Assembly (NCBI GenBank): GCA_964621615.1
Contig: CAZUMW010000003.1
Coordinates: 131,619-195,618 of the forward strand
Direction: 5' to 3'
Source of the DNA: an uncultured Thermodesulfobacteriota bacterium
GTDB lineage: Bacteria; Desulfobacterota; WTBG01; CAIYCZ01; CAIRTM01
Length of the DNA: 64,000 nucleotides
Shown here in pieces: positions 6,085-64,000 of this stretch. Every line of letters starts with the position of its first letter. Positions within the stretch are counted from its first letter, which is position 1. The position numbers and the translations under genes are program-made. A model generated the notes under the pieces. The model made no database searches and was not told the DNA's origin. It saw nothing but the letters and a program-made list of their open reading frames with translations.

Positions 6085-6085
6085 T

Positions 6086-17136: not shown

Positions 17137-17152
17137 AGCAAGTGTGATGCCA
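17137..17152 (-). promoter_or_regulatory. Sigma-54 (-24/-12) promoter for the pilin gene
   Basis: Minus-strand sequence TGGCAT-CACAC-TTGCT matches the consensus TGGCAC-N5-TTGCW. It lies ~120 nt upstream of the pilin ATG and is co-located with a σ54 activator gene. Confidence 0.55.
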
Positions 17153-17347
17153 AAACGAATGCAAAATATTTTATAAAGCTATTTCAATAATTTGGGTGAA
17201 ATGATAAATCGAGGAGGAATTTTAAAACCTGCCTTATTGACAAATTTTGTCACTTGCGGTGCTCTAATTTGTTCATGAAGCTGGATGCGGGGCAATTACA
17301 AACAGTGTCCGCGGTGCCGGGACACTCCGGCCGCGTCCGGGAAGCGC

Positions 17348-19117
17348 TCATGCTGACAGCGCCGGAAGAACCACCCTGAATGTCGTCCCGGAGCCCTTCC
17401 GGCTGGTAACCGATATATGGCCCTCATGCTCCTCGATAATGCGCTGGACGATGGACAGTCCGAGGCCGATACCCTCATCGCGTGTTGTAAAAAACGGGTC
17501 GAAAATTTTTTCCATTTCCTGCTCATGCATACCGCATCCGCTGTCCTGCACTTCGATAACAGCCCATGGGTGTGGCGGATCAGCCGGGGTCCCGTTTCGG
17601 GGAGGTGCGATATCGGGCGGGGCTTCTCCTGCGCGCCGGGAGCTGAGGCGTATGGTTCCCTCGGCGCCTGCACCGATTGCCTGGGCGGCGTTGAGCATCA
17701 GGTTCCAGAGAACCTGACGCATTTGATAGTAATGCCCGGTTATGTATACGTCATCCTCCGCCGACTCAACAACACTGAGGGCGCTGCTGCATTCGGTGCT
17801 GTTTTTAAAGACAGATGCGACATCGCGGACAAGCTCCCTGACATTCAGGGGCTTTTTTTCGCTTGCAGCAGGTCGCGCATATTGTGTGAAGTCTGAAATG
17901 AGCGCGCTCAAGTGACCGCTTTCTTTTACGATTATATCCATGAGCCGCTTATCGACGTCGCTGAGCGAAACATTTTTCTGCAGCACCTGAACCGATCCGC
18001 TGATGGAGGCCAGCGGGTTGCGCACCTCATGAGCGATGCCCGCCGCAAGGCGGCCCAGCGAGGCAAGCCGCTCCAGACGCCGCGCGTTGTCCTGCATCTG
18101 CTTGTACTCGGTAAGGTCCTGAAAAACCAGTATATAGCCGGTTTGTTCTTTGTTTTTATCCCGCAGGACCGAAAAAGAGATCCCGACCCAGAGCTCGGTG
18201 CCGTCCGGGCGCGCAAAGGCGCGCTCGATGCGCCGCACCTGATTCCTGTTCGTTTCAGAAGGGGGCTGCACCTGTTCGCTGAGCGGAATGTCGGAAAATA
18301 CCTCATGTGCATGTTTCATAAATACCTGATCCCGTGAAAAGCCGGTAATGCGCTGTGCCGCCCGGTTAAAGGTGATGATTTTCTGATCGTTATTGAGGGT
18401 GACAAGGCCGTCGCTCATGCTTTGTATGATATTTTCATTCAGCACCGCAAGGTTTTCGAAATCCAGCTGCTTTTGCTGCAGCTGGATGCGCGATTTTTTT
18501 GCCTGCTCAGCCACGAAGCTGCTGAGCAGCGCAACAAGATAAAAGGCGGTGATATTTACCGCCAGCGGAAAGAACAGCGGTGAGCGCGAGTACGCCGGCC
18601 CGAGATACACTTCATACTGCGGCGGGCTGATAAGATGTGCTTCCTGCAGCACAACAAGGCTGCAGTAGCACAGGCTTGCCGCGCTTGCAGCGAGCAGCCC
18701 CCCTCCGCGATACAGCAGAATTCCGGCGGCGATGATCACGATGCTGTACATAAAAGAAAAGATGCTGTCTCTGCCGCCGGTTATGTATAAAAGGGCGGTG
18801 ACAAGCACCATATCAGCGCACACCTGCATATGGGCGAACGCGATGTGCCGCTTTATAAACGGCATAACGAAGACATATGCCAGGCTGCACACATACACGC
18901 AGGCGGTAAGCCCGTATATGTTAACCAGATACGGGGCAAGAAACGTGTCGCTTTGCTTAAGATGGGTAACGGCAGCGAGCCCGAGAAAAAAGGAAGCGAT
19001 AATGACCCGGAAAAGCATAAGCCACTGAAGCCGCCTTTTCAGGTCATAGGGGGTAATCATTTCGGTGCCGGAAGCTGACTGCATACGGTCATGTCCCTCG
19101 GGGCAGCTACACGTCAT
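17348..19117 (-). CDS. pilS: Sensor histidine kinase (PilS-like: polytopic membrane domain, PAS, HisKA, HATPase)
   Basis: N-terminal six-TM region and a PAS-like segment. H-box AHEVRNPLASI. G-boxes at the C-terminus. The start is uncertain (M1 or M12). Confidence 0.75.
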   Translation of the reverse strand: MTCSCPEGHDRMQSASGTEMITPYDLKRRLQWLMLFRVIIASFFLGLAAVTHLKQSDTFLAPYLVNIYGLTACVYVCSLAYVFVMPFIKRHIAFAHMQVCADMVLVTALLYITGGRDSIFSFMYSIVIIAAGILLYRGGGLLAASAASLCYCSLVVLQEAHLISPPQYEVYLGPAYSRSPLFFPLAVNITAFYLVALLSSFVAEQAKKSRIQLQQKQLDFENLAVLNENIIQSMSDGLVTLNNDQKIITFNRAAQRITGFSRDQVFMKHAHEVFSDIPLSEQVQPPSETNRNQVRRIERAFARPDGTELWVGISFSVLRDKNKEQTGYILVFQDLTEYKQMQDNARRLERLASLGRLAAGIAHEVRNPLASISGSVQVLQKNVSLSDVDKRLMDIIVKESGHLSALISDFTQYARPAASEKKPLNVRELVRDVASVFKNSTECSSALSVVESAEDDVYITGHYYQMRQVLWNLMLNAAQAIGAGAEGTIRLSSRRAGEAPPDIAPPRNGTPADPPHPWAVIEVQDSGCGMHEQEMEKIFDPFFTTRDEGIGLGLSIVQRIIEEHEGHISVTSRKGSGTTFRVVLPALSA

Positions 19118-20468
19118 GCTTGTCGATGCCCAGCTTTTTGAGCCGGTAGCGCATGGAGCGGAACGATACGCCGAGCAGCTCAGCCGCGCCCTTTACCGAC
19201 CCCCTGCTTATTTTGAGCGCCTCCTGAATATAGCGCTTCTCGCACCCGGCGATGATGTCGTCGAGGCTGACGCCCTCGGGCGGAATAACGCAGGCTGAGG
19301 GCCCGGCCTCCGTTTGCTGGATGGTCTCCGGAAGCAGGATGTTTGTTTTTGACAGGGCAACGCCTTTTTCAACAATATTTTCAAGCTCGCGGACATTGCC
19401 GGGAAAGTGATAATTTTTGAGACAGGTCATGACAAAATCGGAAATTTCGCCCGGCTCCTTTCCCATTTGTTCGGCGTACTCGCGGGAAAAGTGCCTGACA
19501 AGAAGCGGGATATCGTCCGCGCGCTCGCGCAGCGGGGGGATATAGATATTGATGACGTTCAGGCGGTAGAAAAGATCCTCCCGGAACGTGCCCTCCTGAA
19601 CCTTCCGGTGCAGATCTTTGTTGGTGGCGGAAATCAGGCGCAGATCAACGGTTATTTCCTGCGTATCCCCGACCGGGGTAAAGGTCTTTTCCTGCACCGC
19701 GCGCAGCAGCTTGACCTGAAGGGACATCGGAAGCTCCCCCACCTCGTCCAGAAAAAGGGTGCCGCCGTGGGCTGTTTCCAGAAACCCTTTCTTGTCTTTT
19801 GAAGCGCCGGTGAAGGCGCCTTTCCTGTACCCGAAAAGCTCGCTTTCAAGCAGCGTTTCGGGTATGCCGCCGCAGTTGATTGTCACAAAGGGCTTGTCGC
19901 GCTGGGCGCTGTGTGCGTGTATCGCTCTGGCAACAAGCTCCTTGCCCGTTCCGCTCTCCCCGGTAATGAGCACATTGCTTTTGGAGGATGCAGCCCGCGG
20001 AATCAGGTCGAACACCCGCTGCATTGCCGCGCTGCGGCCGATCATGCCGAAGGAGGACTCCTGCCCGCCCCCGGCGTCCTCAGCCGGCTTCATGTCAGCG
20101 GCTTTGGCGCGGTGAGCAAGCGCGCGCTCTATTTTCTGTTTTATATCCTCGACATCGAAGGGCTTTGTTATATAGTCGTATGCCTCCTCGTCCATCGACT
20201 GCTTTGCTGTTTCAAAGGACGCAAAGGCGGTTATCATAATGAATATTGTTTCAGGGGAGCGCGCCCGTACCCGCTTGAGAAGGCTGAGCCCGTCCATGAC
20301 CGGCATTTTAATATCGGCAACCACGACATCGTATGTGCTGTGGCGAAACAGAGCCAGCGCTTTTTCGCCGTTTGCCGCGCAGGTAACCTCATAGCCTTCG
20401 CGGTGCAGATAGATTTCAAGCATTTCGCGAATGCTTTGTTCATCATCGACCACAAGTATCCTGGGCAT
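19107..20468 (-). CDS. pilR: Sigma-54-dependent response regulator (REC-AAA+-Fis; PilR/NtrC family)
   Basis: REC domain ILVVDDEQSIREML. AAA+ GESGTGKELVARAIH. GAFTGA σ54-interaction motif. C-terminal HTH. Start placed at MPRILVV (20468). Confidence 0.85.
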   Translation of the reverse strand: MPRILVVDDEQSIREMLEIYLHREGYEVTCAANGEKALALFRHSTYDVVVADIKMPVMDGLSLLKRVRARSPETIFIMITAFASFETAKQSMDEEAYDYITKPFDVEDIKQKIERALAHRAKAADMKPAEDAGGGQESSFGMIGRSAAMQRVFDLIPRAASSKSNVLITGESGTGKELVARAIHAHSAQRDKPFVTINCGGIPETLLESELFGYRKGAFTGASKDKKGFLETAHGGTLFLDEVGELPMSLQVKLLRAVQEKTFTPVGDTQEITVDLRLISATNKDLHRKVQEGTFREDLFYRLNVINIYIPPLRERADDIPLLVRHFSREYAEQMGKEPGEISDFVMTCLKNYHFPGNVRELENIVEKGVALSKTNILLPETIQQTEAGPSACVIPPEGVSLDDIIAGCEKRYIQEALKISRGSVKGAAELLGVSFRSMRYRLKKLGIDKHDV

Positions 20469-20559
20469 GCCGGGAGCTCCTGTTTGCAGTATGAAAATCA
20501 CATGCATTGAGGCGGCCAAAGGCCGTGCACCGGATGGGAAGCTGCACGCCGCGCCGCCG

Positions 20560-21846
20560 CTATCGCGGCCTGCGGTACACAACGGCGCCGGCAACGATGG
20601 TATAGGCGCAGCGGCCCGTTAGCTGCCAGCCGTGAAAGGGGGTGTTCCTGCTCTTGGATGCAAACTGTTCTTTATCGACAGTAAATTCTTCTGAGGGATC
20701 GATCACGGTTATATCTGCGGCCGCACCCCGGGCGATCCGCCCTCTATCGATTCCGATGACCGCTGCGGGCCGAACCGTCATTTTTTCGATTGCCTGCGCA
20801 AGGGTAAGCACGCTTTCGCGGACAAGCGCGAGCGCAAGCGGAAGCGATGTTTCAAGACCGATAATACCGAACGCTGCCCTGTCGAACTCAACGTCCTTTT
20901 CCAGGCTGGAGTGGGGGGCGTGGTCGCTGGCAATCACATCGATCGTTCCGTCGGCAAGGCCGGCACGGACCGCTGCGACGTCCCCGTCAGTGCGCAGGGG
21001 CGGGTACATTTTTGTCGCGGTGTCGAAGCCGGCAACCGCTTTATCGGTAAGCGTAAAATAATGGGGTGCGGTTTCCGCGGTGACCGGTACGCCGCGCGCC
21101 TTTGCCTCGCGCACCAGCCCGACGGCGCGGGCGGTGCTGACATGGGCGATATGAACCGGATGCCCGGTGAGCTCCGAAAGCATAATATCACGCGCGACAA
21201 CACTGTCTTCAGCAGCTGCGGGGATTCCGCGAAGCCCGAGCATCGTGGAGACGGCGCCTTCGTTCATTACGCCGTCGCCGGAGAGGCTGTAGTCCTGACA
21301 GTGGCACATGACGGGCATGGAAAAGCTTGCCGCATATTCGAGCGACAGCCGCATGATGCGCCCGTCTGCTATGGTTCTGCCGTCATCTGAAAGGGCAACA
21401 GCGCCGGCCTCTTTCAGGTCGCCCATCTCGGTGAGGTCGGCGCCCTTGAGCCCGCGGGTAAGCGCTGCCACGGGCAGCACAGTGACGCAGGCCTGCGCGG
21501 AGGCTCTTTCACAGATAAAGCGGGTGACAGAGGCAGTGTCATTGACCGGGCTGGTATTGGGCATGCAGGCTATGGTGGTAAATCCGCCTGCGGCAGCGGA
21601 CATCGCCCCCGTACGAATGGTTTCCTTATATTCGAACCCCGGCTCCCGAAGGTGGGTGTGTATGTCAATAAGCCCCGGGGCGACAACCATGCCCCCGGCA
21701 TCGATGACCTCACAGGCGCTGTCTGTCCCGGATGAGCCGCACTCGGCAATATCCGATATCCTGCCATCGGTTATTATAACGTCGCGCACTGCATCAAGCC
21801 CTGATGCCGGATCCACAACCCGTCCGTTTTTTATGCAAAGGTCCAT
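20560..21846 (-). CDS. pyrC: Dihydroorotase
   Basis: DIHTHLREPG metal-binding motif and conserved amidohydrolase core. The alternative upstream start at 21870 would overlap pyrB. Confidence 0.8.
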   Translation of the reverse strand: MDLCIKNGRVVDPASGLDAVRDVIITDGRISDIAECGSSGTDSACEVIDAGGMVVAPGLIDIHTHLREPGFEYKETIRTGAMSAAAGGFTTIACMPNTSPVNDTASVTRFICERASAQACVTVLPVAALTRGLKGADLTEMGDLKEAGAVALSDDGRTIADGRIMRLSLEYAASFSMPVMCHCQDYSLSGDGVMNEGAVSTMLGLRGIPAAAEDSVVARDIMLSELTGHPVHIAHVSTARAVGLVREAKARGVPVTAETAPHYFTLTDKAVAGFDTATKMYPPLRTDGDVAAVRAGLADGTIDVIASDHAPHSSLEKDVEFDRAAFGIIGLETSLPLALALVRESVLTLAQAIEKMTVRPAAVIGIDRGRIARGAAADITVIDPSEEFTVDKEQFASKSRNTPFHGWQLTGRCAYTIVAGAVVYRRPR

Positions 21847-45792: not shown

Positions 45793-45869
<77 letters not shown>

Positions 45870-45987: not shown

Positions 45988-47457
45988 TTACTTTTCACTG
46001 TCTGCCGGAGAAAATATCCTGTCCAGAGCGTGCAGTTCAGCATTGTTGCTGTTGTTTTCGACATATTTGCTGTAGACATTGATAATCATCTCCGTGTTCC
46101 GGTGACCCATCATATGTGCTATGTACAACGGGTTGACACCGTTACTGAAGGCGGTTGTGGCAAATGAATGCCGTGTCTGCCGCAAGTCACGGTACGCTAC
46201 ACCGGCATCCTCAAGGGCTGTTGCCCATACCCTTTTTCTGAAGTTGTCGATGTCGATTCGCTTACCTTCAGGGGTGCAGAAAAAATATTCACTGCCGAGT
46301 GTGTTATGAATTTTTTTCTGTTGTGTCAGTATTTCAATCATACCTGGCGTCAGTTTTATGGTTCTTCTGCTGAAGGCATTTTTTGTTCTGCCTTCAATGA
46401 TTTTGCCTTGCGCATCACGAGTCATAGCACGCCTGATATGCAGAAGACCTTTCTGCCAGTCAATGTCCCCCGGCTTTATTGCCGTTTGTTCTCCATGCCT
46501 CATGCCGCAGCAAAATGCGAACCTGATATACGGTTTCCAGTGGGTGGGGGTATGATGCACTATTTCCTGCTGCTCCTGTAGTGTGCACGGGTTGATTTTT
46601 TCATACGAGTTATCCTCTTTCAGTTTCTTGAAGCCGAAGAACGGATTGTATACTGCACCCCAGTTGTACTCTATAGCTGCGTCTTTACAGATCAGTTTCA
46701 GCGGAATGAAAATATTATTGATAGTCTTATTACCGATCACCTTGTTTTTGAGTTGCCGGTTACGGGACCAGGCCACGAACCGTTCAAAAACAGTTTTGTT
46801 CAGATGTGCAAATGTATAATTTTCAAAGAATGGTTTAATGTAATTGTTGAGATAGCTTTTGTAATCACGAAGCGTCCTTCCGGTCATACGTCCCGTTGCT
46901 TCAACCGTTTCAATCCACCGTTGCGCATAATCTGCAACGGAAACCTCACCGGGCGGTTTAGGCATTCCCAGAAGCCGTTCTTCTTTCTGCGTAAAATAGT
47001 CCTTCTTTCTGCTTTCAGGAAAAACCTCTGCGAATCTGAACTCACCGGACTTGATGGCAAGGATTATTTTGTCAAGCTGCTGCCTGACGGTCTTCACATT
47101 TTTTTCATTCCACCTGAGCCCGGCACTCTCACGGACCCGCTCGCCCATGTACCGGAAATCGACATATATGGTGCCGTTCATGTTACGTATGGAGCCCTCA
47201 CGGTTTCTGTTCAGGCCCTGCTTTCTGCCTTTACGGTTTGTCCTGGGCAGTCGGATAACCTCGGCAGACATACCACTGTTGTGTGACATATCTATCCTCC
47301 AGTCATCGGCATCCCTCCTTTCTGCTGATTTTCCCTTGTCATAGATTATCATAGCCGACTGCCTGTTCAAACCAAAATTATATGTTGATAGAGCTCTTTG
47401 CCGGGGACTTTTTTGTGCCTTTTTCGGCAGTATCCCTGCACACTTCTGTACCGTCAT
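45988..47457 (-). CDS. int: Tyrosine-type site-specific integrase
   Basis: C-terminal catalytic domain with R...HxxR...Y residues (HSFATTAFSNGVNPLYIAHMMGH...NVYSKY). The start is uncertain: internal Met at 47352 or 47286 would remove the overlap with the excisionase gene. Confidence 0.8.
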   Translation of the reverse strand: MTVQKCAGILPKKAQKSPRQRALSTYNFGLNRQSAMIIYDKGKSAERRDADDWRIDMSHNSGMSAEVIRLPRTNRKGRKQGLNRNREGSIRNMNGTIYVDFRYMGERVRESAGLRWNEKNVKTVRQQLDKIILAIKSGEFRFAEVFPESRKKDYFTQKEERLLGMPKPPGEVSVADYAQRWIETVEATGRMTGRTLRDYKSYLNNYIKPFFENYTFAHLNKTVFERFVAWSRNRQLKNKVIGNKTINNIFIPLKLICKDAAIEYNWGAVYNPFFGFKKLKEDNSYEKINPCTLQEQQEIVHHTPTHWKPYIRFAFCCGMRHGEQTAIKPGDIDWQKGLLHIRRAMTRDAQGKIIEGRTKNAFSRRTIKLTPGMIEILTQQKKIHNTLGSEYFFCTPEGKRIDIDNFRKRVWATALEDAGVAYRDLRQTRHSFATTAFSNGVNPLYIAHMMGHRNTEMIINVYSKYVENNSNNAELHALDRIFSPADSEK

Positions 47458-49421: not shown

Positions 49422-50156
49422 ATGAATCACCGAAAGCGCATAAAAGATTCTGAAACTCCTTGGAAAACCAATGGTTGGGTTCCATTTGCGTTAGTTGAAA
49501 ATGAGGCAGAATTTGAAACGCTGCACAAATACCTACTGCTAGTTGAAGATCATATCAGAGACAAAACTGTGGCATTCGCGAGCAATATAAAGAAGACGAT
49601 AGAAAGACTAGGCCTAAGCGGACAAGATGCTGACTATTACTACGAGTCACATGAAAATGAATATGGCAGATTGCATGAAGCGTATCCCAACATTGCCCGT
49701 GCCACTGTGCTCTCAATGGCTTGTTCAGTTTTTGAAAGTGGACTTACAGAGATTTGCAAGGAGTTCGAAAGGACGGATGATGTGCAAACGACCCGAATCA
49801 AGTGGGATAAAATAAATAATGCAACCGGAATAATCAGAGCAAAAAAATACATCAAAAAAAATTTTGATATTCATTTTAATGAACATCAAGAGTGGCAGGC
49901 AATCCGAGATTATTATAAGGTGCGAGACTGCTTTGTACATGCGAACGGCGATGTATCTCTCATGAAAGAGAAGCAAAGTAAAGATATCGAATCGATTACC
50001 CGAAGAGTACCAGGGGTCACCATAGAATATAAACGTTTAAGGCTAGATAGCCGAAGATTTTTCGACGGTGTCTTTGGGACCATGAGTAGATTTTGGTCAG
50101 ACTTGAGGATAGCATTTCGAGAAAACGAAATTGTTGGTCCCGTTTACTGGGAGTAA
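49422..50156 (+). CDS. Hypothetical protein with HEPN-like Rx4H motif
   Basis: 244 aa, AT-rich codon usage. C-terminal region YYKVRDCFVHANG (K-x-R-D-x-F-V-H). Confidence 0.45.
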   Translation: MNHRKRIKDSETPWKTNGWVPFALVENEAEFETLHKYLLLVEDHIRDKTVAFASNIKKTIERLGLSGQDADYYYESHENEYGRLHEAYPNIARATVLSMACSVFESGLTEICKEFERTDDVQTTRIKWDKINNATGIIRAKKYIKKNFDIHFNEHQEWQAIRDYYKVRDCFVHANGDVSLMKEKQSKDIESITRRVPGVTIEYKRLRLDSRRFFDGVFGTMSRFWSDLRIAFRENEIVGPVYWE

Positions 50157-50250
50157 GAACAGATTTCATAGTCATCATGGAAAAAGAAATAGTCTATCAC
50201 ATTGTTCAGCAGATTGGTGCTTTGTGACTGCAGCTAAGCAACTACGCTAG

Positions 50251-51279
50251 TTGTACAAACAGATTATTATGATCGCAAGAATTTACATACAACTCCCATT
50301 CGCTTTAACAATTCCGGAAAAAGAATCTTATCCAGTTTATGCCTATAAATTAGGTGCTTACAATATCTACTATTTCTTTCCGAAGAGAAGCGAGATGGCA
50401 AATAGATATTCCAGCGCTGACAGCATGAAAATGGACGGTAAGCCCGCAATGAGTGCAGATGTCTTACATATTGATTTCCAGACAAAAAGATTTAACCGAA
50501 AAGTCGATGCACAGGTTGATCCTCCGCCTGAATTGATAGAAGAAATTGCAAACGATTTTTTAGCAAGATTGAGATATGTTACCAATGCAAGCAAAATTAA
50601 ATTGATAAAATTATCTAATTTAAATTGGTCTTGTACATATCTGAAAGATGACGGCACTGAGTTAAGGAAAAATAAGCGCTATATTTGTGGCAGAGGAGTG
50701 AGAAAGTTCGTTTTTTCTTATGTGGCGTTGGATAAACAAATTTGGGAGGATATTCACTCTATTCCTCCGGGTTATGAATTTCCGGTTTGGAAAACGCTAT
50801 TACTTGATGCTGCTTCAATATTACCGGAAACTGGTCCAGCAATCATTTTGACCTTTACAGCATTAGAGGTGTTCATTTCAAAAATATTAGATAGTGTAGC
50901 CAAATATAATAAAATTGATCGGGATTTTTGGGGATGGGTCAATAGCCGAGGTTATTTAAAAGAACCAAGCATTGAGGAGAAATATAATTTTTTATCGCTA
51001 CATATAATTGGGAAATCAATAAAAGAGAATAATGATCTTTGGGAGGCTTTTAAACATCTCCGTAAGGCAAGAAATTCGTTCGCACACACTGGTGTAGCAA
51101 TGATTGGTGATGAACTTGTTACAGAAGAGAAAACCCGTTTTTTTATACGCAAAGCCAAAGAAATAATAGATTTTATAAAAAAAGAAATTCCAGAAGAATT
51201 GCGATGGCTTGAGTTTAAGCATGGAGTACAAATGGAAATTATCCAGGCGTTAAGACAGTCTATGGAAGAAGAGCAGTAA
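50251..51279 (+). CDS. Hypothetical protein with HEPN-like RNx3H motif (Abi-like)
   Basis: 342 aa, AT-rich. C-terminal region HLRKARNSFAHTG (K-x-R-N-x-F-A-H). Size and motif are reminiscent of the Abi_2 (AbiD/AbiF) family. Confidence 0.45.
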   Translation: MYKQIIMIARIYIQLPFALTIPEKESYPVYAYKLGAYNIYYFFPKRSEMANRYSSADSMKMDGKPAMSADVLHIDFQTKRFNRKVDAQVDPPPELIEEIANDFLARLRYVTNASKIKLIKLSNLNWSCTYLKDDGTELRKNKRYICGRGVRKFVFSYVALDKQIWEDIHSIPPGYEFPVWKTLLLDAASILPETGPAIILTFTALEVFISKILDSVAKYNKIDRDFWGWVNSRGYLKEPSIEEKYNFLSLHIIGKSIKENNDLWEAFKHLRKARNSFAHTGVAMIGDELVTEEKTRFFIRKAKEIIDFIKKEIPEELRWLEFKHGVQMEIIQALRQSMEEEQ

Positions 51280-53682: not shown

Positions 53683-54405
53683 TTAATCACAGATACTGCA
53701 CCCCTTTTTTCTTTCAACCGTACTGCAGAATTCCGGGATAGTCCCGTCAAGAAACATCTCCTTATAGTTCCACACCCGCATCCTGTCCATAAAGAGGGTG
53801 TCGACCGCATACAGTACGATGCCTCCAACCACTTTGAGTATATCCTTTATGGCCGGCGTACCCGGGCAGGGGTTTTTACCGTCATTGATTGCATCGGGCC
53901 TGAAGCAGCCGAAACAGGCTTTGCCCGGCTCCTGCACATACACGTAGCCGGCATTGCCGAGTTCATTCACGGCAGTGAATATGACCGGTATGTTCCGGCG
54001 GTAATAGTAGTCGGAGACAAACACCCTGGCCGCATCATTGTCAACGCCGCATACCGCAACATCACAGCCAATGTCATGGGAGTCGAACCCGGCGGCATCC
54101 TGAAACTTCCAGGGAAAACCATTAAGACGGGTATCTCCAATACCGTCATGAACCAGGTTTTGTGCAAGCTGCACGGCCTTGTTTTTGTACAGATCTTTTT
54201 TGTAGAACCGTTGCCGGTTAAGGTTTGAAAGCTCCACCGTATCGTCATCAAAGATGCTAAGGGAGCCGACCCCCTTCCGGACAAGTCCCTCGCCGATCTC
54301 GCTACCCAGTCCACCGGCACCGATGAGGTTCAGTCTCAGCTTCCTGAATGTGTTCTGGCTGAACCCTTTGATCTTCTCCTGCCGATCGGTTGCCGGGGCC
54401 TCCAT
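53683..54405 (-). CDS. E1-like ubiquitin-activating / ThiF-MoeB family adenylyltransferase
   Basis: LNLIGAGGLGSEIGEGLVRKGVGSLSIFDDDTVELSNLNRQ nucleotide-binding fold. Two CxxC pairs (ACFGCF, GCSICD). Start placed at MEAPATD (54405). The longer frame to 54690 would run antisense-free but overlaps the JAB gene. Confidence 0.7.
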   Translation of the reverse strand: MEAPATDRQEKIKGFSQNTFRKLRLNLIGAGGLGSEIGEGLVRKGVGSLSIFDDDTVELSNLNRQRFYKKDLYKNKAVQLAQNLVHDGIGDTRLNGFPWKFQDAAGFDSHDIGCDVAVCGVDNDAARVFVSDYYYRRNIPVIFTAVNELGNAGYVYVQEPGKACFGCFRPDAINDGKNPCPGTPAIKDILKVVGGIVLYAVDTLFMDRMRVWNYKEMFLDGTIPEFCSTVERKKGCSICD

Positions 54406-54952
54406 CCTGTGCGTTTTCTGCAGCGGCGTTACGGTTAAAAAAACCGGCTGTTGTGAATCTGAAATGTGTGTCGTCAATTTGCTCAACCCCCTTTCCGTAG
54501 ACGTGAATAATAAAGGGTAGATTGTGTGAAAAAAATCTGATCTGCCCGTCTCTGGTAAATATGCCGCCGATGGCATTGTATCCTCCCGCCTCAATCCGTG
54601 CCTGGTAGTCGAGGTCGATACCCGATGGCGATGAGAAATTTCCGGGATGGCTGTGAAAGTGTGCGTGAAGGCGATGGCCGAACATTTCATCCATTGTTAT
54701 AAGGGTTTTTGCCACCGAATTGATATCGGTTTTGACCTGTACGGGGCTCTGAGTTTGCATCTTTACCTGCTGCATATAGTCAAAGGTCCGCATCCAGCCC
54801 ACCCTGATACCGGTGACAAAATGAAAGACTTCATTAGGACCCATTGAGGTTAGGTACCGGTAACACCGGTACAGAAAAAGCGAGCCGGTCATGAAACACA
54901 GAGGCGTTGCAAGCTCATTCTTGCCTTTCTGAAAAACGTTCGGAAAAAACAT
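54302..54952 (-). CDS. JAB/JAMM (MPN+) family metallopeptidase
   Basis: JAMM motif E...HAHFHSHPGNFSSPSGID (H-x-H-x7-S-x2-D). The 3' end overlaps the E1-like gene by ~100 nt in another frame. Confidence 0.7.
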   Translation of the reverse strand: MFFPNVFQKGKNELATPLCFMTGSLFLYRCYRYLTSMGPNEVFHFVTGIRVGWMRTFDYMQQVKMQTQSPVQVKTDINSVAKTLITMDEMFGHRLHAHFHSHPGNFSSPSGIDLDYQARIEAGGYNAIGGIFTRDGQIRFFSHNLPFIIHVYGKGVEQIDDTHFRFTTAGFFNRNAAAENAQDGGPGNRSAGEDQRVQPEHIQEAETEPHRCRWTG

Positions 54953-54973
54953 GGCATACCTCCCCTGGCAGAT

Positions 54974-55354
54974 TTAAAATCCAAAATATATTTCATGTAT
55001 GATTCGTTCTATGTGAATTATCCCCGAATCGATATCCCGCGGCTGCCGGCTGAAGTGAATAAAGAATTTTCCACCGCCTTTATGGTTGTTGAAACATGCA
55101 CCATGTTCGGGATGATCCAGGATTTTTCCGGTTGGTTCATAAATATAGAACCTGAGTTCGGTCGGAAGACGATATTCTTCGATAAGGCCTTGAAAGTCGG
55201 TAAGCAAGGAGATTTTATATCGGCCGTGATAGGAAAACCCCAAACCTCTGGGGCTTCGTATCCAGCCGTTTTCCTCCCAGTAGGGTTTCAGGGACCGCTT
55301 TATCCGCAGCGGTCCGGTCCTGAAAGCCGGGTCGGATTTGATGCGGATGGTCAT
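54974..55354 (-). CDS. Putative E2-like (UBC-fold) protein
   Basis: 127 aa from MTIRIK (strong SD AGGAGG 8 nt upstream). Contains a DHPEHGAC segment resembling the E2 HPN-x-Cys active-site region. Positioned between the Ubl and JAB genes. Confidence 0.4.
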   Translation of the reverse strand: MTIRIKSDPAFRTGPLRIKRSLKPYWEENGWIRSPRGLGFSYHGRYKISLLTDFQGLIEEYRLPTELRFYIYEPTGKILDHPEHGACFNNHKGGGKFFIHFSRQPRDIDSGIIHIERIIHEIYFGF

Positions 55355-55418
55355 AGGGTATCCTCCTTTCAAAAAAAAAGAGGACAGCAGGATGTCGGCA
55401 CTGCTGCCCTCCCATAGA

Positions 55419-55646
55419 TCAGCCGACCATAGCATTGGTGATTGCAAAGAGTTTGGCACCGTCATTAACATGCGGGTACACCACCTCGGTATCGGCAAAC
55501 GGAGGATGTGAGGGACCGAGTGAGAGTTTGTAGCCATAGAGGTTAAGCTGGTGGCAAATATCATATGCTGTTGTGCCGGGTTCTATAGTGATGTCATGGG
55601 GTTCCCCGTCGGTGCTTGCTACCTTGACTGCAAGTCTTTTTGCCAT
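55419..55646 (-). CDS. Putative ubiquitin-like (beta-grasp) protein ending in Gly
   Basis: 75 aa (MAKRLAVKV...AITNAMVG-stop). The size, a Gly immediately before the stop, and the position at the head of the E2-JAB-E1 genes support a Ubl. SD GAGGAG 9 nt upstream. Confidence 0.45.
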   Translation of the reverse strand: MAKRLAVKVASTDGEPHDITIEPGTTAYDICHQLNLYGYKLSLGPSHPPFADTEVVYPHVNDGAKLFAITNAMVG

Positions 55647-55659
55647 GATATGTGTCTCC

Positions 55660-55917
55660 TCAGGATATGGTTTTTTTGATGTTTTCATCCGGTTTGCTGC
55701 CGGTGGAATTGACCAGACCCTGCATTACTTCAGGCCGTTCACCGGTGATCAGATCCTCAAGATCGGTAAGGCTTTTCCACTTCATGGCCTTCAATATCGT
55801 CAGAATCTCAAGCAGTGTCCTGCAGGTTTTCAGATCAATTCCCTTCACTTTTTCCTGCACGATATTTTTGAGAACGATATCGCACAGGTCCTGCTTTTTT
55901 TCATTTTTGCCGGACAT
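55660..55917 (-). CDS. Small hypothetical protein heading the Ubl-E2-JAB-E1 operon
   Basis: 85 aa, Lys-rich and helical. Very strong SD (AGGAGGTG). Its stop is 13 nt before the Ubl start. Confidence 0.4.
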   Translation of the reverse strand: MSGKNEKKQDLCDIVLKNIVQEKVKGIDLKTCRTLLEILTILKAMKWKSLTDLEDLITGERPEVMQGLVNSTGSKPDENIKKTIS

Positions 55918-56338
55918 TTTTCACCTCCTTTCCTTGGCATCGGTTAGGGTTTGTTTTTTATCTGCACACTCATATATTTGTCATGTGCAGGCCCCGATTA
56001 TTTACAAATTTTTTTCATTGGGTCCCGTATGCCGTTGGTTTTACCCGTTAATGTGAAACATGAGCCTGCTGCTTTTACCCTTAGTCCGGTGGCGGATTGA
56101 AAAATTTTCGATTTTTTTGCACAGTAATGATGATTGTCTTTCATATTGATAAACGGGAAGATCTACAGGAAATTTACCGCCAGGATGAAAAAAATATTTT
56201 TTTGTGGTGCCAATGAGGCGCGAATGAGTGAAAACATCTGGGTAGACAGACAGATGCGGGGGCAAAACCGAAAGGTTTATATAGTAGTTGTGTTTTATGG
56301 TTACTATTTCCAGGTAATAAAATAAGCGGGGTGATTAT

Positions 56339-56848
56339 ATGAGTCTGACACCGGAAACCATGCTTTCATACTTTGATGTGAAATACGTATATACCGGGAC
56401 ATACACACCGATAAAGGCGCAGTACGGGTCACCACTCGGCCCGGACCGGTATGCCGGCGGTTATGCCGGATCCGTGTCGGCCGCTGCGGACCCCCTGGAG
56501 CAGATCATGGGCGAAAAGAAGCAGCTTCTGCAGTCAAAAATCGAGATGCTTCTTGCCGGTATTGAGCAGCGAAGGAAGATCAAACAGGACAATATGTACC
56601 GCATCGATCTTGATTCCTGCGATGTTAACACCATGATCTTTCAGCTGCCGCCTTACCGGAAATACGGCATTGACCGGGAACGCTTGACGCTTGAGCGAAT
56701 GAAAAAGGATCTTGAAAAACAAAGAAGGGCGGAAGAAGTAAATTATTTTCGGGATCTGTCATTTATGCAAAAAGATCTGATCGAGACCGCCATACAGTAC
56801 CTTGGCGAGCAGAACAAACAACGGATACTGTCGGCGTCGGAGGAATAA
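56339..56848 (+). CDS. Hypothetical protein (first gene of the nuclease/ATPase operon)
   Basis: 169 aa, no recognised domain. Followed 2 nt later by the next gene. Confidence 0.4.
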   Translation: MSLTPETMLSYFDVKYVYTGTYTPIKAQYGSPLGPDRYAGGYAGSVSAAADPLEQIMGEKKQLLQSKIEMLLAGIEQRRKIKQDNMYRIDLDSCDVNTMIFQLPPYRKYGIDRERLTLERMKKDLEKQRRAEEVNYFRDLSFMQKDLIETAIQYLGEQNKQRILSASEE

Positions 56849-56850
56849 CC

Positions 56851-57039
56851 ATGTATGTAACAGAAGATGATATAAAAAAACTTTTATATGAACCGCTTGA
56901 ATTTGCAAGCAGAATGGAAACCGCTGAGATTGATTACGTACTGGAGAAATTTTTGGACGTACGCACTGTAAAATATAAATACCAGGAGGACTTTATGAAA
57001 TCAAAATGGCAAAAAGAATACAATCCCCTTCATCGATAA
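56851..57039 (+). CDS. Small hypothetical protein
   Basis: 62 aa, acidic N-terminus. Overlaps the start of the nuclease gene. Confidence 0.35.
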   Translation: MYVTEDDIKKLLYEPLEFASRMETAEIDYVLEKFLDVRTVKYKYQEDFMKSKWQKEYNPLHR

Positions 57040-57749
57040 ACATGTACAATCGATGTCCCCGTAAGTATTTCCTGCACTACATATTAAAAAATCCCATCAA
57101 ACCGAACATCCATCTGTACCGCGGCTCAATCGTACACAGCACCCTGCATCTGTTCGAACAGCTCAAGCTCAGCAACATTACCCGGAAGGACCACCCGCAG
57201 CTCAGAACACAGCTGCTGGATATCTTTTATGCAGAGTGGAAAAGGCATGCAGAAGACATTGCCGGGCTGTGGCTGCCCGATGATGTCGTAAACGGGTTCC
57301 GGGAGGAAAGCATCATGATGCTTGACAATTTTCTTGCTCATTACATTGAGGAACAGATACGCGGTCCGCCGGAGAAAAAGACCGAGCTCAAGCTGTTCTC
57401 CGGTGACGAATACTCGGTGATGGGTATCGTTGACCTCATAAAGGAAAAGGACGGAACCGTTGAGATCATCGACTACAAAACCGCAAAAAAAGCGGACATG
57501 ACAGCAGAATACCGGCTGCAGCTTGCAATCTATGCGCTGCTGTATGAAGAAAAATTTAACCGGCTGCCTTCCCGTGTCGGGATTCATTTCCTGAAGTACA
57601 AAGACGGTGTCAGGATGATTGAGGTCGACGAGCAGCTTGTCAACCTTGCCAAACGCGAGGCAAAGCTGATTCATGTCAATACCGCCTCGGACAATCCTGC
57701 CGATTATCCCTGCAGGTGCGGGGGATGGTGCGAGAGGGATTTTGCATGA
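57006..57749 (+). CDS. Cas4-like / RecB-family PD-(D/E)xK nuclease with Fe-S cluster cysteines (DUF83-like)
   Basis: N-terminal SPSSINMYNRCPRKYFLHY (Cas4 motif with first Cys). VMGIVDLIKE...EIIDYKTAKK (D...E-x-D-Y-K catalytic motif). C-terminal CRCGGWC (Cx1Cx3C), giving a 4-Cys cluster. Confidence 0.65.
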   Translation: MAKRIQSPSSINMYNRCPRKYFLHYILKNPIKPNIHLYRGSIVHSTLHLFEQLKLSNITRKDHPQLRTQLLDIFYAEWKRHAEDIAGLWLPDDVVNGFREESIMMLDNFLAHYIEEQIRGPPEKKTELKLFSGDEYSVMGIVDLIKEKDGTVEIIDYKTAKKADMTAEYRLQLAIYALLYEEKFNRLPSRVGIHFLKYKDGVRMIEVDEQLVNLAKREAKLIHVNTASDNPADYPCRCGGWCERDFA

Positions 57750-59701
57750 GAAACGATATCAGAGAAACGTTGCAGAAGCTGAAACCGCTTATCGGTAAAA
57801 AGGCCGATGCCCTGTGGCTGTTGTACCAGTCTGCAGATTACCGGGAACGGGGGGATGTTGAAATAAAGATCAACCTTATTGCCGAAAAATATCTCAGAAG
57901 TTTTGAGGATAAAATCGAGCTGCCGCCGTTAACAAGTGCGGATGCAGCAGGAGAGTTGGAAGTCGGCCGGGTAAACTATGCAGACAAAAATCTCTACGGT
58001 TTCGGGCTCAGAAAGCAGGAGCTTCTGAAACATATCGGCATATTCGGTCAAACAGGAAGCGGCAAAACCGTTGCAACGTTGAACCTTTTAAAAGAACTTT
58101 GCAGTCAGAAGGTGCCGTTTCTGGTGTTTGACTATAAGCGTAATTACCGGGACATAATCGACCACCCGGATTTTACAGATGAAGAGATTCTTATCTTTAC
58201 CGTGGGCCGTGACATATCCCCGTTTTATTTCAACCCGAAAAACAAACCGCCCGGAGTTGAGCCGCACGTATGGAACAAAAAATTGTGCAACGTTATCGAG
58301 AAAGCCTATTACCTGGGCTATGGTGCCATGGATGTTATTATGGAAGCATTCGGCAGCAAAACCTTCAAGGAAATGGAGGGCTATCTTAAAAAGCAGCGCA
58401 AGCGTGCCAGGGAGCTTTTGTGGTATATGAGCGCAAAAAGGACTTTGAATGCGATTAATTTCCCGGGGCTCTCAGAGGTCGTAAACTGTGAGAAAGGATA
58501 CCCGATTGAAGAACTCCTGAAGAAGAAAGTCATCCTGGAACTCGACGGACTTTCCGATACCGACAAGGCGTTTTTTACCGGCAGCCTGCTTTTGTGGATC
58601 TATTACTTTCGTTTATGCGAACAGCAAAGAGAGACGGTGAAACATGCGGTCATAATCGAAGAGGCACATAATCTTTTCTACAAAACAAAACACGATGCCG
58701 AAGATATCACCGACATTATTATGCGTGAGATAAGAGAGCTGGGTGAGAGTATCACCGTAATCGACCAGCTTCCTCACCGTATTTCGCTCACTGCACTGGG
58801 AAACATCTTTACAAAAATCTGCCTCAGCCTGTCGCTGACCCAGGATATCATTGCCATGAGCAATGCTCTGTTGCTTGACAACCATCAGAAGCGATACCTC
58901 GGCATGCTGACACTCGGCAGGGCTATTGTAAAGACGGGAAGACATCCGTTTCCCTTTCTTGTCACCATCCCTGCGTTTAATTTGCGCAAGGGCTCGATCA
59001 GCGACAGCGGTGTAAAACAGCATATGCGTCCGTATTTGAAGCATTTAGGCCGTGAAATGCCTCCGATGCCGAAAACGGCAGATGTTCAGGGTGTTCAAAA
59101 ACCTGATTCCCTGTCCCCCATTGCGAAGATTTTGCTTAGCGATATCTGCATGAATCCCTTTGCCGGTATCGTCAAACGGTATAAAACACTGGGGCTGGGC
59201 ACGGCGGAAGGAACTGCGGCACAGCAGGAACTTATGGACAGGCACCTGATTAGAGCCGTAACCGTCGAGGGTACAAAGATCCTTGATTTGACCGATACCG
59301 GAAAAGAACTGGTGAAATCTATGGGTATACAGGGGTCTTTTAAAAAGCCCCGCGGCGGGACAATCCACAATTATTACATACACCGCATAAAAAAAGAGCT
59401 GATAAAAGCAGGCCGGTTTACATTCATTGAACATGACCGGATTGATATCGTTACGCAAAGCGGAAACCTTCACCAGACCATTGCAATAGAGGTTGAGACC
59501 GGCACGTCCACCATTGAAGGAAATCTGTGGAAACTTGCAAAACATACCGCTGACCGGAAGTATATGATAGCAACAAACAAAGAAGCGCTGAAACATATTG
59601 AGCAGATATACGCTCCTTTGTTAATACCTGATAAGGAAAAGATAAAGATATATTATGTCAAAGATTTCCTTGCAGACCTTCCCCACATCCTTTCATGCTG
59701 A
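57746..59701 (+). CDS. HerA/FtsK-like (DUF87-type) P-loop ATPase with C-terminal wHTH/endonuclease-like region
   Basis: Walker A GIFGQTGSGKTVATLNLL followed by LVFDYKRNY (HerA-type). Walker B VIIEEAHNLF. C-terminal ~200 aa with HTH-like and IEHDRIDIV...IAIEVETG segments. ATGA start/stop overlap with the nuclease gene. Confidence 0.6.
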   Translation: MRNDIRETLQKLKPLIGKKADALWLLYQSADYRERGDVEIKINLIAEKYLRSFEDKIELPPLTSADAAGELEVGRVNYADKNLYGFGLRKQELLKHIGIFGQTGSGKTVATLNLLKELCSQKVPFLVFDYKRNYRDIIDHPDFTDEEILIFTVGRDISPFYFNPKNKPPGVEPHVWNKKLCNVIEKAYYLGYGAMDVIMEAFGSKTFKEMEGYLKKQRKRARELLWYMSAKRTLNAINFPGLSEVVNCEKGYPIEELLKKKVILELDGLSDTDKAFFTGSLLLWIYYFRLCEQQRETVKHAVIIEEAHNLFYKTKHDAEDITDIIMREIRELGESITVIDQLPHRISLTALGNIFTKICLSLSLTQDIIAMSNALLLDNHQKRYLGMLTLGRAIVKTGRHPFPFLVTIPAFNLRKGSISDSGVKQHMRPYLKHLGREMPPMPKTADVQGVQKPDSLSPIAKILLSDICMNPFAGIVKRYKTLGLGTAEGTAAQQELMDRHLIRAVTVEGTKILDLTDTGKELVKSMGIQGSFKKPRGGTIHNYYIHRIKKELIKAGRFTFIEHDRIDIVTQSGNLHQTIAIEVETGTSTIEGNLWKLAKHTADRKYMIATNKEALKHIEQIYAPLLIPDKEKIKIYYVKDFLADLPHILSC

Positions 59702-60057
59702 CCCCGCAATGTATCCGTTACCGGGATACACATCACACACAGGCAGATAACTTATAAAGCGATTTTGGTGCCTGACGGCTCGATAACGTAAAGCGACAGG
59801 TGAGCCATTGTATGAAACGGAATCTCCCGACGAGAACGCCGGGGGAGCCGTGATTTATACAGCTGCAGCACTATTTTTGGAGAAAGGGGGTGTTACCGAA
59901 AAATTATACCATTTGTAACCGGCTTATTCTTAACCGAAAGGAGGTGGACGGCACGCAGTAAAACACATTTTTTTACATTGTCACATCATCTTGAAGGGGG
60001 CGGGCGGCACAGTACAGTGCAGCTTGTCCCCTTTTTTTTCAAGAAAGGAGACAAGCT

Positions 60058-60999
60058 ATGATGAAAACAAAAAGCAACAAATCAGAAAATGGGTTCAATC
60101 TCTATCAGCACATCACTGATAAAATCATTGAAGCGCTTGAAAAAGGTGTCGGACCGTGGGTGCGGCCATGGGACGATTCCGGAGTGCAGTTCATCTGGCC
60201 GAGAAACGCGTTATCGGCCAGACCGTACAACGGGATAAATGTCCTGCTTTTGAACATGGTTGCCCTTGAAAAAGGCTATACGGACCCGCGCTGGGTGACC
60301 TTCACCGATGTAAAAAAGCGCGGCGGACACATAAACAAAGGTGAACGCCATACAAAAATCGTTTTCTGGAAATTCCTGGAGCGCCGGGACCGACAGGAAG
60401 ACGACGACACGCACAGAGACGAGCATACCGGTAAAAAGGTTATACCGCTTCTGCGCTATTACCGTGTTTTTAATGTGCAGCAGTGCAAGGGTTTAAAATT
60501 AAAAGAGCTTCAGAAGCCCGAGCCGGAAACTGCTGCAGGCGGGGAAAACATCCGGGCGGAAAAAATCCTGTCACTGCCCGACATACGAACCGGCGGGAAC
60601 CGTGCCGTCTATCATCCTGGACAGGATATCATACAGCTGCCGCCGAAAACATCTTTTAAAAACCTGCAGCATTATTACGCCACCGGCTTCCATGAAACGG
60701 TTCACTGGTCAGGTCACGGTACACGGCTTACCCGCAGTTTCGGTAAACGATTCGGTGACGACACATACGCAATGGAAGAGTTGGTTGCCGAGATCGGATC
60801 GGCATTCCTGGGCGGTCATGTCGGTCTGCCGTTTACGGAGATGCGTCATCCTGAATACATACAGTCCTGGATTACATCCCTGAAAAACGACAACAGGGCA
60901 ATATTCACCGCATGCCGGATGGCGCAGGCTGCAAGTGATTACATTTTGAAAAACGCCGGCATTGACCGGCCTGAGGACCAAACAGCGGCTGTCCTCTGA
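60058..60999 (+). CDS. ardC: ArdC-like antirestriction protein (N-terminal ssDNA-binding domain + zincin metalloprotease domain)
   Basis: N-terminal NLYQHITDKIIEALEKGVGPWVRPWD...PYNGINVLLL (DUF1738/ArdC-N). C-terminal HETVHWSGH (HExxH). Confidence 0.75.
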   Translation: MMKTKSNKSENGFNLYQHITDKIIEALEKGVGPWVRPWDDSGVQFIWPRNALSARPYNGINVLLLNMVALEKGYTDPRWVTFTDVKKRGGHINKGERHTKIVFWKFLERRDRQEDDDTHRDEHTGKKVIPLLRYYRVFNVQQCKGLKLKELQKPEPETAAGGENIRAEKILSLPDIRTGGNRAVYHPGQDIIQLPPKTSFKNLQHYYATGFHETVHWSGHGTRLTRSFGKRFGDDTYAMEELVAEIGSAFLGGHVGLPFTEMRHPEYIQSWITSLKNDNRAIFTACRMAQAASDYILKNAGIDRPEDQTAAVL

Positions 61000-63052: not shown

Positions 63053-63451
63053 ATGGATACCATGAAAGAACTTTTTGGTGATGTAATACACGTATATACC
63101 CGCACACAGGCAATCGAAGACGGTGTGCTTATTGATGTCACGCAAACCGCCCGGGAAGCAGGCATCCGTTTCCCGGTAGCATTGACGGCGGCAGTATGGC
63201 AGGAATATGTCGTTCCGGATGAAGCATTAAAAAATCACGGCCAGTCAACGGAAGGCAGGCTCTGGGATGTATTGTGGATGTTCCGGTTCAGTGCCGGTTT
63301 GAGTTCTGAAGCTGTCATATGCTATCAGGTGTTCTTTACCATGCTTGTAAACCAAACACCGGAGCAGCGGCTTGTAACCCTCAAAGCTGTTTGCGGTCCC
63401 GGCGATCATGGCGAGCCGGTGATAACCATCATGAAGTCTGATGAGGACTAA
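63053..63451 (+). CDS. Hypothetical protein
   Basis: 132 aa, SD GGAGGTG upstream. No recognised family. Confidence 0.35.
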   Translation: MDTMKELFGDVIHVYTRTQAIEDGVLIDVTQTAREAGIRFPVALTAAVWQEYVVPDEALKNHGQSTEGRLWDVLWMFRFSAGLSSEAVICYQVFFTMLVNQTPEQRLVTLKAVCGPGDHGEPVITIMKSDED

Positions 63452-63949: not shown

Positions 63950-63990
63950 TATGAATGCGTTTGAGCTTCGTAACAAACTCATCTCGGCCT
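63950..63990 (+). CDS. Start of an ORF truncated by the window end
   Basis: ATG at 63950 gives MNAFELRNKLISAYQN... after a very AT-rich promoter-like region. Identity not determinable. Confidence 0.2.
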
Positions 63991-64000
63991 ACCAAAATTA

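Follow-up and report, generated by a model that had tools for sequence, protein, structure and literature searches.

The 64,000-nucleotide (nt) stretch of DNA considered here, hereafter the window, is part of contig CAZUMW010000003.1 (assembly GCA_964621615.1) of an uncultured Thermodesulfobacteriota bacterium and carries a cassette of four genes at 56339-59701 on the plus strand. As taken from the list of open reading frames (ORFs), these are g1 (56339-56848, 169 amino acids (aa)), g2 (56851-57039, 62 aa), g3 (57006-57749, 247 aa) and g4 (57746-59701, 651 aa counted from its ATG, or 661 aa in the list when counted from an upstream GTG). The junctions were read directly from the sequence: g1 stops at TAA and the ATG of g2 follows 2 nt on, preceded by GGAGGA; g2 and g3 overlap by 34 nt; and g3 and g4 overlap in the letters ATGA. 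The four same-strand genes are tightly coupled, in agreement with an earlier annotation made from the letters alone (the sequence-only reading), which gave the same four sizes and proposed the operon as a candidate defence module.

Related loci were collected from genome and metagenome scans. A pattern scan of genome contigs with single proteins returned no matches, and an alignment-based scan gave the loci, 70 in all (referred to below by the letter L and a number), of which the 28 that extend over at least 6 kb were used for ORF clustering. Both g1 and g3 were present in 28/28 of these loci and g4 in 27/28, with constant order and constant flanks, so that the four-gene arrangement is conserved elsewhere and the recurrence of gene order is far beyond chance. 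Variable cargo is found upstream of the cassette, comprising ubiquitin-like (Ubl)/E1/JAB genes in the window and in the loci closest to it, HEPN proteins in the window, and in other loci toxin-antitoxin pairs, Fic, a Y-family polymerase or an opposite-strand Cdc6/Orc1-like AAA operon. Downstream there is a same-strand array of small ORFs, a DUF2958-like protein and ArdC, often also with an AAA/DUF2997/DUF3150 set, RadC and a DUF6094 methyltransferase with an SNF2 helicase. Pairwise identities were correlated within the cassette (rho 0.79-0.86) and with those of ArdC (0.56-0.71), and g4 is the most conserved of the backbone proteins, with a mean identity of ~60% vs 44% for ArdC. The cassette is an invariant, co-diverging backbone part of one integrative-element family and not variable cargo; the label of a defence module is not supported by this context, in which the defence-like genes are the variable cargo just upstream.

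Relatives of g4 fall into more than 700 protein clusters and, among the matches listed, the best are 47-73% identical. The few relatives for which a source is named belong to the Thermodesulfobacteriota (Desulfosarcina, Desulfocarbo and Syntrophales), and the cassette family seems confined to elements of this phylum. Desulfocarbo indianensis carries two near-identical copies of the backbone (L008 and L009, on scaffolds 6.1 and 13.1), which suggests recent duplication or mobility. No cassette relatives were found in IMG/VR or among GenBank phages, and a role in prophage packaging was dropped on this ground. Plasmids in PLSDB yielded relatives of ~25% identity, all inside far larger proteins of Streptomyces, Rhodococcus and Priestia and in uninformative contexts. 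PADLOC returned no system match for the cassette and no model that fits g1 or g2, and no NCBIfam family reached its cut-off for any of the cassette proteins. Literature searches found no described system of HerA with a Cas4-like nuclease, and the view that this combination is undescribed holds as far as the PADLOC, NCBIfam and literature searches reach.

By its profile matches and conserved residues, g3 is a Cas4/AddB-type PD-(D/E)xK nuclease with intact active-site residues. The protein has the SPSSINMYNRCPRKY N-terminal motif, D143, D156-Y-K158, Q172..Y176 and C236-x-C238-x3-C242; C17, D143, D156-Y-K158, Q172..Y176 and the three C-terminal cysteines are each at least 90% conserved in 25 homologues. 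The four-cysteine signature is thereby intact, from which an iron-sulphur (Fe-S) cluster is predicted. The start at 57006 is to be preferred to the automatic 235-aa call because the conserved SP(T/S)xIN motif precedes the later start. Pfam PDDEXK_1 (6.5e-26) and Cas_Cas4 (2.5e-6) were both matched above their gathering thresholds and Dna2 at 7e-4; AddB nuclease models were matched as well. The Cas4 models of PADLOC gave 1e-16 to 1e-9, with further superfamily-level matches to the DruK and Aga-nuclease models, and a phage 'exonuclease' family of the PHROGs gave 3.7e-25. These results bear out the Cas4-like nuclease with a four-cysteine signature described in the sequence-only reading. With the Fe-S nucleases of the RecB family (Cas4, AddB and Dna2), g3 shares the PD-(D/E)xK core, the QxxxY motif and four cysteines, one N-terminal and three C-terminal, the latter spaced CxCx3C. 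It differs from Cas4 in that the score against TIGR00372 (cas4) was 55.4 bits, under the cut-off of 65, and in its neighbours, since no cas1, cas2, CRISPR array or other cas genes flank the cassette in any locus. On these two grounds we describe g3 as Cas4-like and not as Cas4.

The product of g4 is, by profile and modelled fold, a soluble HerA-clade ring-type P-loop ATPase, for which a hexamer is predicted. The motifs GQTGSGKT (Walker A, residues 101-108), VFDYK and IIEEAH (Walker B, residues 303-308), which had been read as HerA-type from the letters, are invariant in 30 homologues, and Pfam DUF87, the HerA central domain, was matched at 1.4e-10. A profile built from the 30 homologues matched HerA (4d2i, 3.3e-11) and chains of SIR2-HerA and DUF4297-HerA in the PDB; no VirB4, TrwB or FtsK chain was matched in this search. 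For the AlphaFold model (predicted local distance difference test score, pLDDT, 72.8), the top 50 Foldseek matches in the PDB were all of the HerA clade, namely HerA, HerA-NurA, SIR2-HerA, DUF4297-HerA and TdpAB, the best being 4d2i (1.7e-13). Among the curated NCBIfam models, CedD was the best match in 30/30 members of the family (8e-27 for the window protein and 1.1e-29 for the best member), well ahead of the HerA_antiphage (best 1.8e-12) and HerA (best 2.2e-11) models. The window protein scored 31 and 17 bits against the NCBIfam HerA models (cut-offs 800 and 970) and 30 bits against HerA_antiphage NF042943 (cut-off 800). In PADLOC, the matches to HerA and mad8 were at superfamily level, those to HerA being partial and 1e-12 at best, and the PHROG 'terminase' matches span the P-loop only.

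Neither profile, fold nor neighbourhood places g4 among the VirB4/TraC or VirD4/TraG/TrwB ATPases of type IV secretion systems (T4SS). The VirB4/TraC models matched the window protein at E values of 0.01 or worse; VirB4_plasma matched 13/30 members, at 3e-5 at best and far under its cut-off; TrwB_AAD_bind was matched with 20.3 bits vs a cut-off of 20.5, over the P-loop only, and a faint match to TraG was likewise over the P-loop; and FtsK_SpoIIIE of Pfam gave 15 bits (cut-off 24). The protein has no N-terminal hydrophobic segment, the highest Kyte-Doolittle average over 19 residues being 1.47, within the ATPase core. Flanks were covered for 10-20 kb on each side of the cassette, and no Pfam match to T4SS or relaxase families was found in the whole 29-kb Desulfocarbo scaffold (L009 plus L081), in two segments of one element amounting to ~43 kb in all (L015 plus L086) or in the other flanks. 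The sequence-only reading had reserved the case of a conjugation-family ATPase conserved inside T4SS gene sets, which would make the operon DNA-transfer machinery and not defence. What was found is an ATPase of the HerA clade by profile and fold with no T4SS genes nearby; the choice between T4SS and HerA is nevertheless a false dichotomy, because the HerA-clade proteins CedB/CedD and TdtA also drive DNA transfer.

Beyond a disordered linker (residues ~435-454), the C-terminal part of g4 consists of a PadR/MarR-type winged helix-turn-helix (residues ~458-525, 59117-59320 on the plus strand) followed by a putative restriction-endonuclease (REase)-fold domain of the order alpha-beta-beta-beta-alpha-beta (residues ~536-650, 59351-59695 on the plus strand); the helix-turn-helix and possible endonuclease-like domain suggested earlier are both recovered here. 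The REase fold is moderately supported. H541, E562, D567 and E584 are invariant, and these residues and the topology fit the fold. The domain may be catalytically active, although the canonical lysine of the fold is not conserved and is a threonine in the window. With Foldseek, the whole tail matched the Can2 nuclease weakly (E 3e-3, ~257 columns). A profile of the last 120 residues retrieved 371 representatives among 1.84 billion proteins, most of them tails of ATPases of ~650-680 aa. When 46 of the 371 were considered, several weakly matched REase families of Pfam at 1.5e-4 to 8e-3, these being AHJR-like, CoiA_nuc (1.5e-4), MTES_1575 and RE_TdeIII. Profiles of the tail gave no match to PDB sequences.

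L004 (16735-20770) encodes a paralogue of g4, an ATPase of 678 aa with 24% identity and the same winged-helix and REase-fold tail. It belongs to the same element as the cassette, in the variable part downstream of ArdC. In front of it are genes for an internally repeated protein (444 aa) and for a zinc-ribbon protein (159 aa) whose C-terminus is hydrophobic, and not for a Cas4-like nuclease.

The two small proteins are orphans in the databases searched. The N-terminus of g1 is variable and rich in tyrosine and proline, and its C-terminal half is conserved, helical and coiled-coil-like, with the pattern YRI..D..C ... LE.EKR.EE..YFRD..FL.KELRE; no Pfam, NCBIfam, PADLOC, PHROG or PDB family was matched apart from coiled-coil noise. 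At the position of g2, the relatives inspected have an ORF of 48-64 aa (gene calls there are of 47-57 aa) with a conserved helical core, DPLxFAxxM..E..E.VI..F, and no match was obtained in Pfam, NCBIfam, PADLOC, PHROGs or the PDB. A transmembrane segment was found in none of the four cassette proteins.

The cassette is bounded by two conserved non-coding elements which become visible only through comparison of loci: within the window itself, a search for repeats and inverted repeats and a simple promoter and terminator scan around the cassette were at chance level. On the 3' side, a structured element of ~165 nt follows right after the g4 stop (59690-59862 on the plus strand by covariance model). 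It is composed of a long hairpin 1, then one or two hairpins of the form GGCAG-ATAAC..AGCGAC..-TGCC, and then a GC-rich terminator-like hairpin, after which most relatives have a T-run that is weaker in the window. The clade of the window has two copies of the middle hairpin and a shortened hairpin 1. The element is better conserved than coding DNA in loci whose proteins are only ~50-60% identical. Covariation is clear, with 96.3% of cells paired, controls slid along the alignment collapsing, and 11 pairs changed on both sides vs 3.1 in shuffles (0/500); the G-U pairs favour the plus strand. A single strong match to the covariance model (E 1.5e-4 or better) was obtained per locus in 23/23 loci holding the region, in every case directly behind the ATPase gene; this set includes the window and loci outside model building. 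The window copy scores 27.9 bits (E 1e-4) with a fold z of -2.8, and copies in relatives are found for example at L027 6113-6280 and L008 11843-12010. The only other match of the model was marginal (L082, E 0.25), and Rfam holds no family for the element. The sequence GGTGCGCC, on the minus strand of hairpin 1, resembles the RSF1010 nic region, but the resemblance was judged coincidental because the position relative to the hairpin differs.

On the 5' side, nucleotide alignment of 24 loci revealed a conserved block of ~40 nt located ~35-75 nt upstream of the g1 start (56264-56306 on the plus strand), which in relatives reads AAAACCGAAA..TTTATATAG..AGTnnCACT..CCAGTAAC. A simple sigma-70 scan of this block was not above chance. 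The block is promoter-like and may be a promoter, an operator or a common protein-binding site; the motif ACCGAAAA, which it has in common with the start of the 3' element, is only a lead toward such a common site. With a conserved 5' block and a covarying 3' element of its own, the cassette appears as a bounded and regulated unit of the element.

The setting in the window is that of a tRNA island. A tRNA-Met gene is found at 45793-45869 and a tyrosine integrase gene at 45988-47457 on the minus strand, and the GC content drops from 0.565 to 0.456 in the context of the cassette. The ArdC gene follows at 60058-60999. The sequence-only reading had placed the cassette in a tRNA island between a Ubl-conjugation operon and ArdC. 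The tRNA, the integrase, the GC drop and ArdC agree with this, as does a ThiF/E1 gene with a weak JAB match, which lies on the minus strand at 53683-55688 with the ORFs labelled E2 and Ubl, neither of which has a significant Pfam match. The Ubl-type operon as a whole spans 53683-55917 on the minus strand and contains, besides ThiF/E1 and the weak JAB, the two ORFs labelled E2 and Ubl (196 and 89 aa), which match no family, and an ORF of 85 aa. As listed, the E1 ORF overlaps the JAB ORF by ~390 nt, and E1 therefore probably starts farther downstream. In L019-L021, the closest relatives, the Ubl and 85-aa genes are found again, immediately upstream of the cassette.

In architecture, the cassette is most readily set beside ICETh1 of Thermus thermophilus, a 14-kb tRNA-integrated element without a T4SS, whose four-gene operon encodes the type IIG REase TthHB27I, a NurA-like nuclease, the HerA-like TdtA and a methylase (PMC5365140, PMC7767461). 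TdtA is a proven hexamer with no secretion signal, and the operon pushes DNA from the donor, the nucleases being required (PMC5365140, PMC7767461). The likeness lies in tRNA integration, the lack of any T4SS seen and a four-gene operon of one or more nucleases with an anchorless HerA-like ATPase, and is a likeness of architecture, not one that shows homology. The nuclease of the cassette is Cas4-like and not NurA-like, two small proteins stand in place of the methylase, and the REase fold is fused to the ATPase behind a winged helix, where ICETh1 has a separate type IIG enzyme. A second point of comparison is CedD, the HerA-clade DNA-import ATPase of the crenarchaeal Ced system, which has an N-terminal transmembrane domain and a VirB4-like N-terminal domain and works with the membrane proteins CedA and CedB (PMC11868833). 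CedD is of the HerA clade and its model is the best curated profile throughout the g4 family; g4 differs in scoring 94 bits vs a cut-off of 600, in being soluble and in having no CedA/CedB-type neighbours.

HerA-NurA resembles the cassette in the HerA-clade fold, and in the cassette a nuclease gene lies immediately upstream of the ATPase gene and is translationally coupled to it. No NurA, Mre11 or Rad50 was found in any cassette locus, and the winged helix, the REase tail, g1 and g2 are additional. The anti-phage systems SIR2-HerA (Nezha), DUF4297-HerA and TdpAB likewise combine a HerA-clade ATPase with an effector nuclease and are among the top structural neighbours of g4. DUF4297 is itself a PD-(D/E)xK nuclease, as is g3. 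The cassette differs from them in having no SIR2 or DUF4297 partner and in its low HerA_antiphage score; moreover, these systems consist of two genes scattered in variable islands, whereas the cassette has four genes and a structured element at a fixed place in a backbone. FtsK, SpoIIIE and TraB of Streptomyces carry a C-terminal winged helix on a flexible linker that reads DNA sequence. They belong to the same ATPase superfamily as g4, which also has a C-terminal winged helix on a flexible linker; unlike them, g4 has no membrane domain, and its winged helix is PadR/MarR-like and is followed by the REase-fold domain.

A ring translocase with a winged helix, two nucleases of RecB/REase fold and adaptor-like proteins together suggest a machine that makes or processes a DNA end and moves DNA. 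We tentatively read the cassette as such a 'cut-and-pump' machine of the element backbone, serving transfer or establishment in analogy with the REase-NurA-TdtA operon of ICETh1, although we hold this at somewhat under even odds. The winged helix would recruit the g4 hexamer to DNA, a DNA end would be created and trimmed by the Cas4-like g3 and the fused REase-fold domain, the g4 ring would translocate that DNA, and g1 and g2 would act as adaptor or regulatory subunits. The machine would serve the element, either by donating or exporting element DNA or by processing DNA on arrival, and would not be a swappable anti-phage system. A core function of the element is favoured over swappable defence because the position of the cassette is fixed and no locus lacks it, because it co-diverges with the backbone and contains the most conserved backbone protein, and because the cargo adjacent to it varies. 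A role of this machine in transfer or establishment of the element is ranked first because ArdC and RadC imply horizontal entry of the element and yet no T4SS or relaxase was seen, because ICETh1 provides a precedent and because CedD is the best curated match. The narrower proposal that the cassette and its structured RNA or DNA element form a T4SS-independent DNA-donation or transfer apparatus, by which a large and undescribed family of Thermodesulfobacteriota integrative elements is spread, is considerably more doubtful.

Several points weigh against a backbone machine for transfer or establishment. The four proteins lack membrane anchors and no conserved channel protein adjoins the cassette, which leaves export unaccounted for, although TdtA is also anchorless. 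T4SS or relaxase genes may lie farther out than the flanks covered. The nearest solved structures include the anti-phage SIR2-HerA and DUF4297-HerA besides the repair HerA; fusion of an NTPase with an REase-fold 'effector' is a typical trait of conflict systems; and the paralogous ATPase of L004, with the same tail and different partners, looks like the modularity of defence genes. The close rival is accordingly defence or exclusion between elements, a possible reading though not the best supported, to which we give rather less than one chance in two. Here, the HerA-clade scaffold would sense or translocate foreign DNA and activate g3 in trans and the REase fold in cis, and the nucleases would degrade the DNA of phages or rival plasmids as a fixed weapon of the element. 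Besides the anti-phage structural neighbours (TdpAB among them) and the L004 paralogue, it can draw on the superfamily-level PADLOC matches (g4 to HerA and mad8, g3 to Cas4, DruK and Aga-nuclease), on the REase-fold domains AHJR-like and MTES_1575 as typical effector modules, and on the adjoining cargo hotspot with its defence-like genes. Against this, the cassette is constant in all loci and was found only within one element backbone, with which it co-diverges and of which g4 is the most conserved gene; PADLOC and NCBIfam gave no family-level score, including that of HerA_antiphage; the known HerA partners SIR2 and DUF4297 are absent; and the apparent limitation of the family to Thermodesulfobacteriota elements contrasts with the patchy spread of defence systems across phyla.

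The top fold and profile matches of g4, HerA and HerA-NurA, also point toward an accessory of recombination or replication, in which the Cas4-like exonuclease would replace NurA in end resection, or flaps would be processed in the manner of Dna2, while the element, excised or incoming, is integrated, repaired or replicated, perhaps with the Cdc6/Orc1-like operon taking part. The matches of g3 to phage 'exonuclease' PHROGs and to the Dna2 and AddB models fit this picture, as does the frequent occurrence of the Cdc6/Orc1-like AAA operon upstream. That operon, however, is missing in the window and in the loci closest to it, and in other loci variable cargo intervenes between it and the cassette; the cassette has no conserved companion among recombinases (RecT, Erf or RecA-like) or polymerases, and the winged helix and REase tail are without counterpart in HerA-NurA. 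We regard such a role as unlikely. More improbable again is an unconventional DNA transfer and replication (Dtr) module, with the PD-(D/E)xK nuclease as a MOBC-type relaxase, g4 as the analogue of a coupling protein, the 3' element as origin of transfer (oriT) and a T4SS supplied in trans. Relaxases of the restriction-endonuclease type are reported (Francia et al. 2013, cited in PMC5365140), the nuclease and ATPase operon and the ArdC array are immediately adjoined by a conserved hairpin-rich non-coding element, the flanks read showed no canonical relaxase, and there are the faint P-loop matches to TrwB_AAD_bind and TraG of Pfam. On the other hand, g4 has no transmembrane anchor and is of the HerA and not the VirD4 clade, and most relatives have a T-run terminator at the end of the 3' element (weaker in the window), whose G-U pairs indicate an RNA of the plus strand. 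Were it an oriT, it would lie between a cassette and an ArdC array that point in the same direction and, by the usual logic of leading regions, the anti-restriction genes would presumably be transferred last.

Pairs of a HerA-clade ATPase and a nuclease are known from DNA repair, from anti-phage defence and from one unconventional case of DNA transfer. The cassette represents a fourth arrangement, in which a HerA-winged helix-REase fusion is combined with a Cas4-like Fe-S nuclease, two orphan proteins and a covarying non-coding element, and the elements that carry it form a widespread and undescribed family in environmentally important sulfate-reducing and syntrophic anaerobes. If a role in transfer or establishment is correct, it bears on how elements that carry anti-restriction genes, and that lack T4SS and relaxase genes in the flanks read, move between cells. 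A T4SS-independent donation apparatus, if that is what the cassette and its 3' element form, would stand beside Thermus transjugation and archaeal Ced-type DNA exchange as their bacterial counterpart, made of a Cas4-like nuclease and a HerA-clade pump that has a winged-helix and REase tail of its own. If defence or exclusion is correct, the cassette would be a HerA-type system that is new, unusual in its fixed position and accompanied by an RNA. Both readings are directly testable, since strain-level genome records of Desulfosarcina variabilis and Desulfocarbo indianensis contain the cassette.

A conserved protein of ~394 aa, c75, was found at or near the element edge (L008 19693-20877 on the minus strand, with homologues in L081-L086), and the c75 proteins of the two Desulfocarbo indianensis backbones are 94% identical. 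It matches no Pfam or PHROG family. In some elements it is located downstream of the SNF2 helicase, whereas L083 has it upstream of the cassette. Host-like PAS/Che genes come directly after it in L085, and four loci have a ribonucleotide-reductase-like gene paired with it. It may function at the element boundary or in recombination. The far end of the element, when read by way of c75, showed a ribonucleotide reductase gene, ThiF with a 908-aa NTPase and, in one locus, an FtsK_SpoIIIE/WXG100 block; no T4SS and no clear element boundary were found in this reading. Between the ArdC array and c75, L086 carries a type I-C CRISPR-Cas cargo (Cas3, Cas5d and Csd1) at 17066-21170, together with insertion sequence elements and a group II intron reverse transcriptase.

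Some other features of the window may be recorded. Two cargo genes at 49422-51279 on the plus strand have weak HEPN-type matches, the 244-aa protein to RTasHEPN of PADLOC (3.9e-7) and the 342-aa protein to HEPN families of Pfam (~2e-3), and the pair may be another small conflict module of the island. In the downstream array, a DUF6573 protein is encoded at 63053-63451 on the plus strand. A DUF6573 gene is also found ~5.6 kb from the distant DUF87 homologue on a linear plasmid of Streptomyces avidinii (L017 1-192), a recurrence that may be coincidence or a weak linkage. A DEAD/ResIII helicase of more than 648 aa begins at ~63951-64000 on the plus strand, near the end of the window, and continues in L080 (2151-4094), occupying the slot of the methyltransferase-SNF2 pair of relatives. 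Far from the tRNA island, a second low-GC stretch at 4001-8000 (0.35-0.38 vs ~0.57 in its flanks) may be another horizontally acquired segment.

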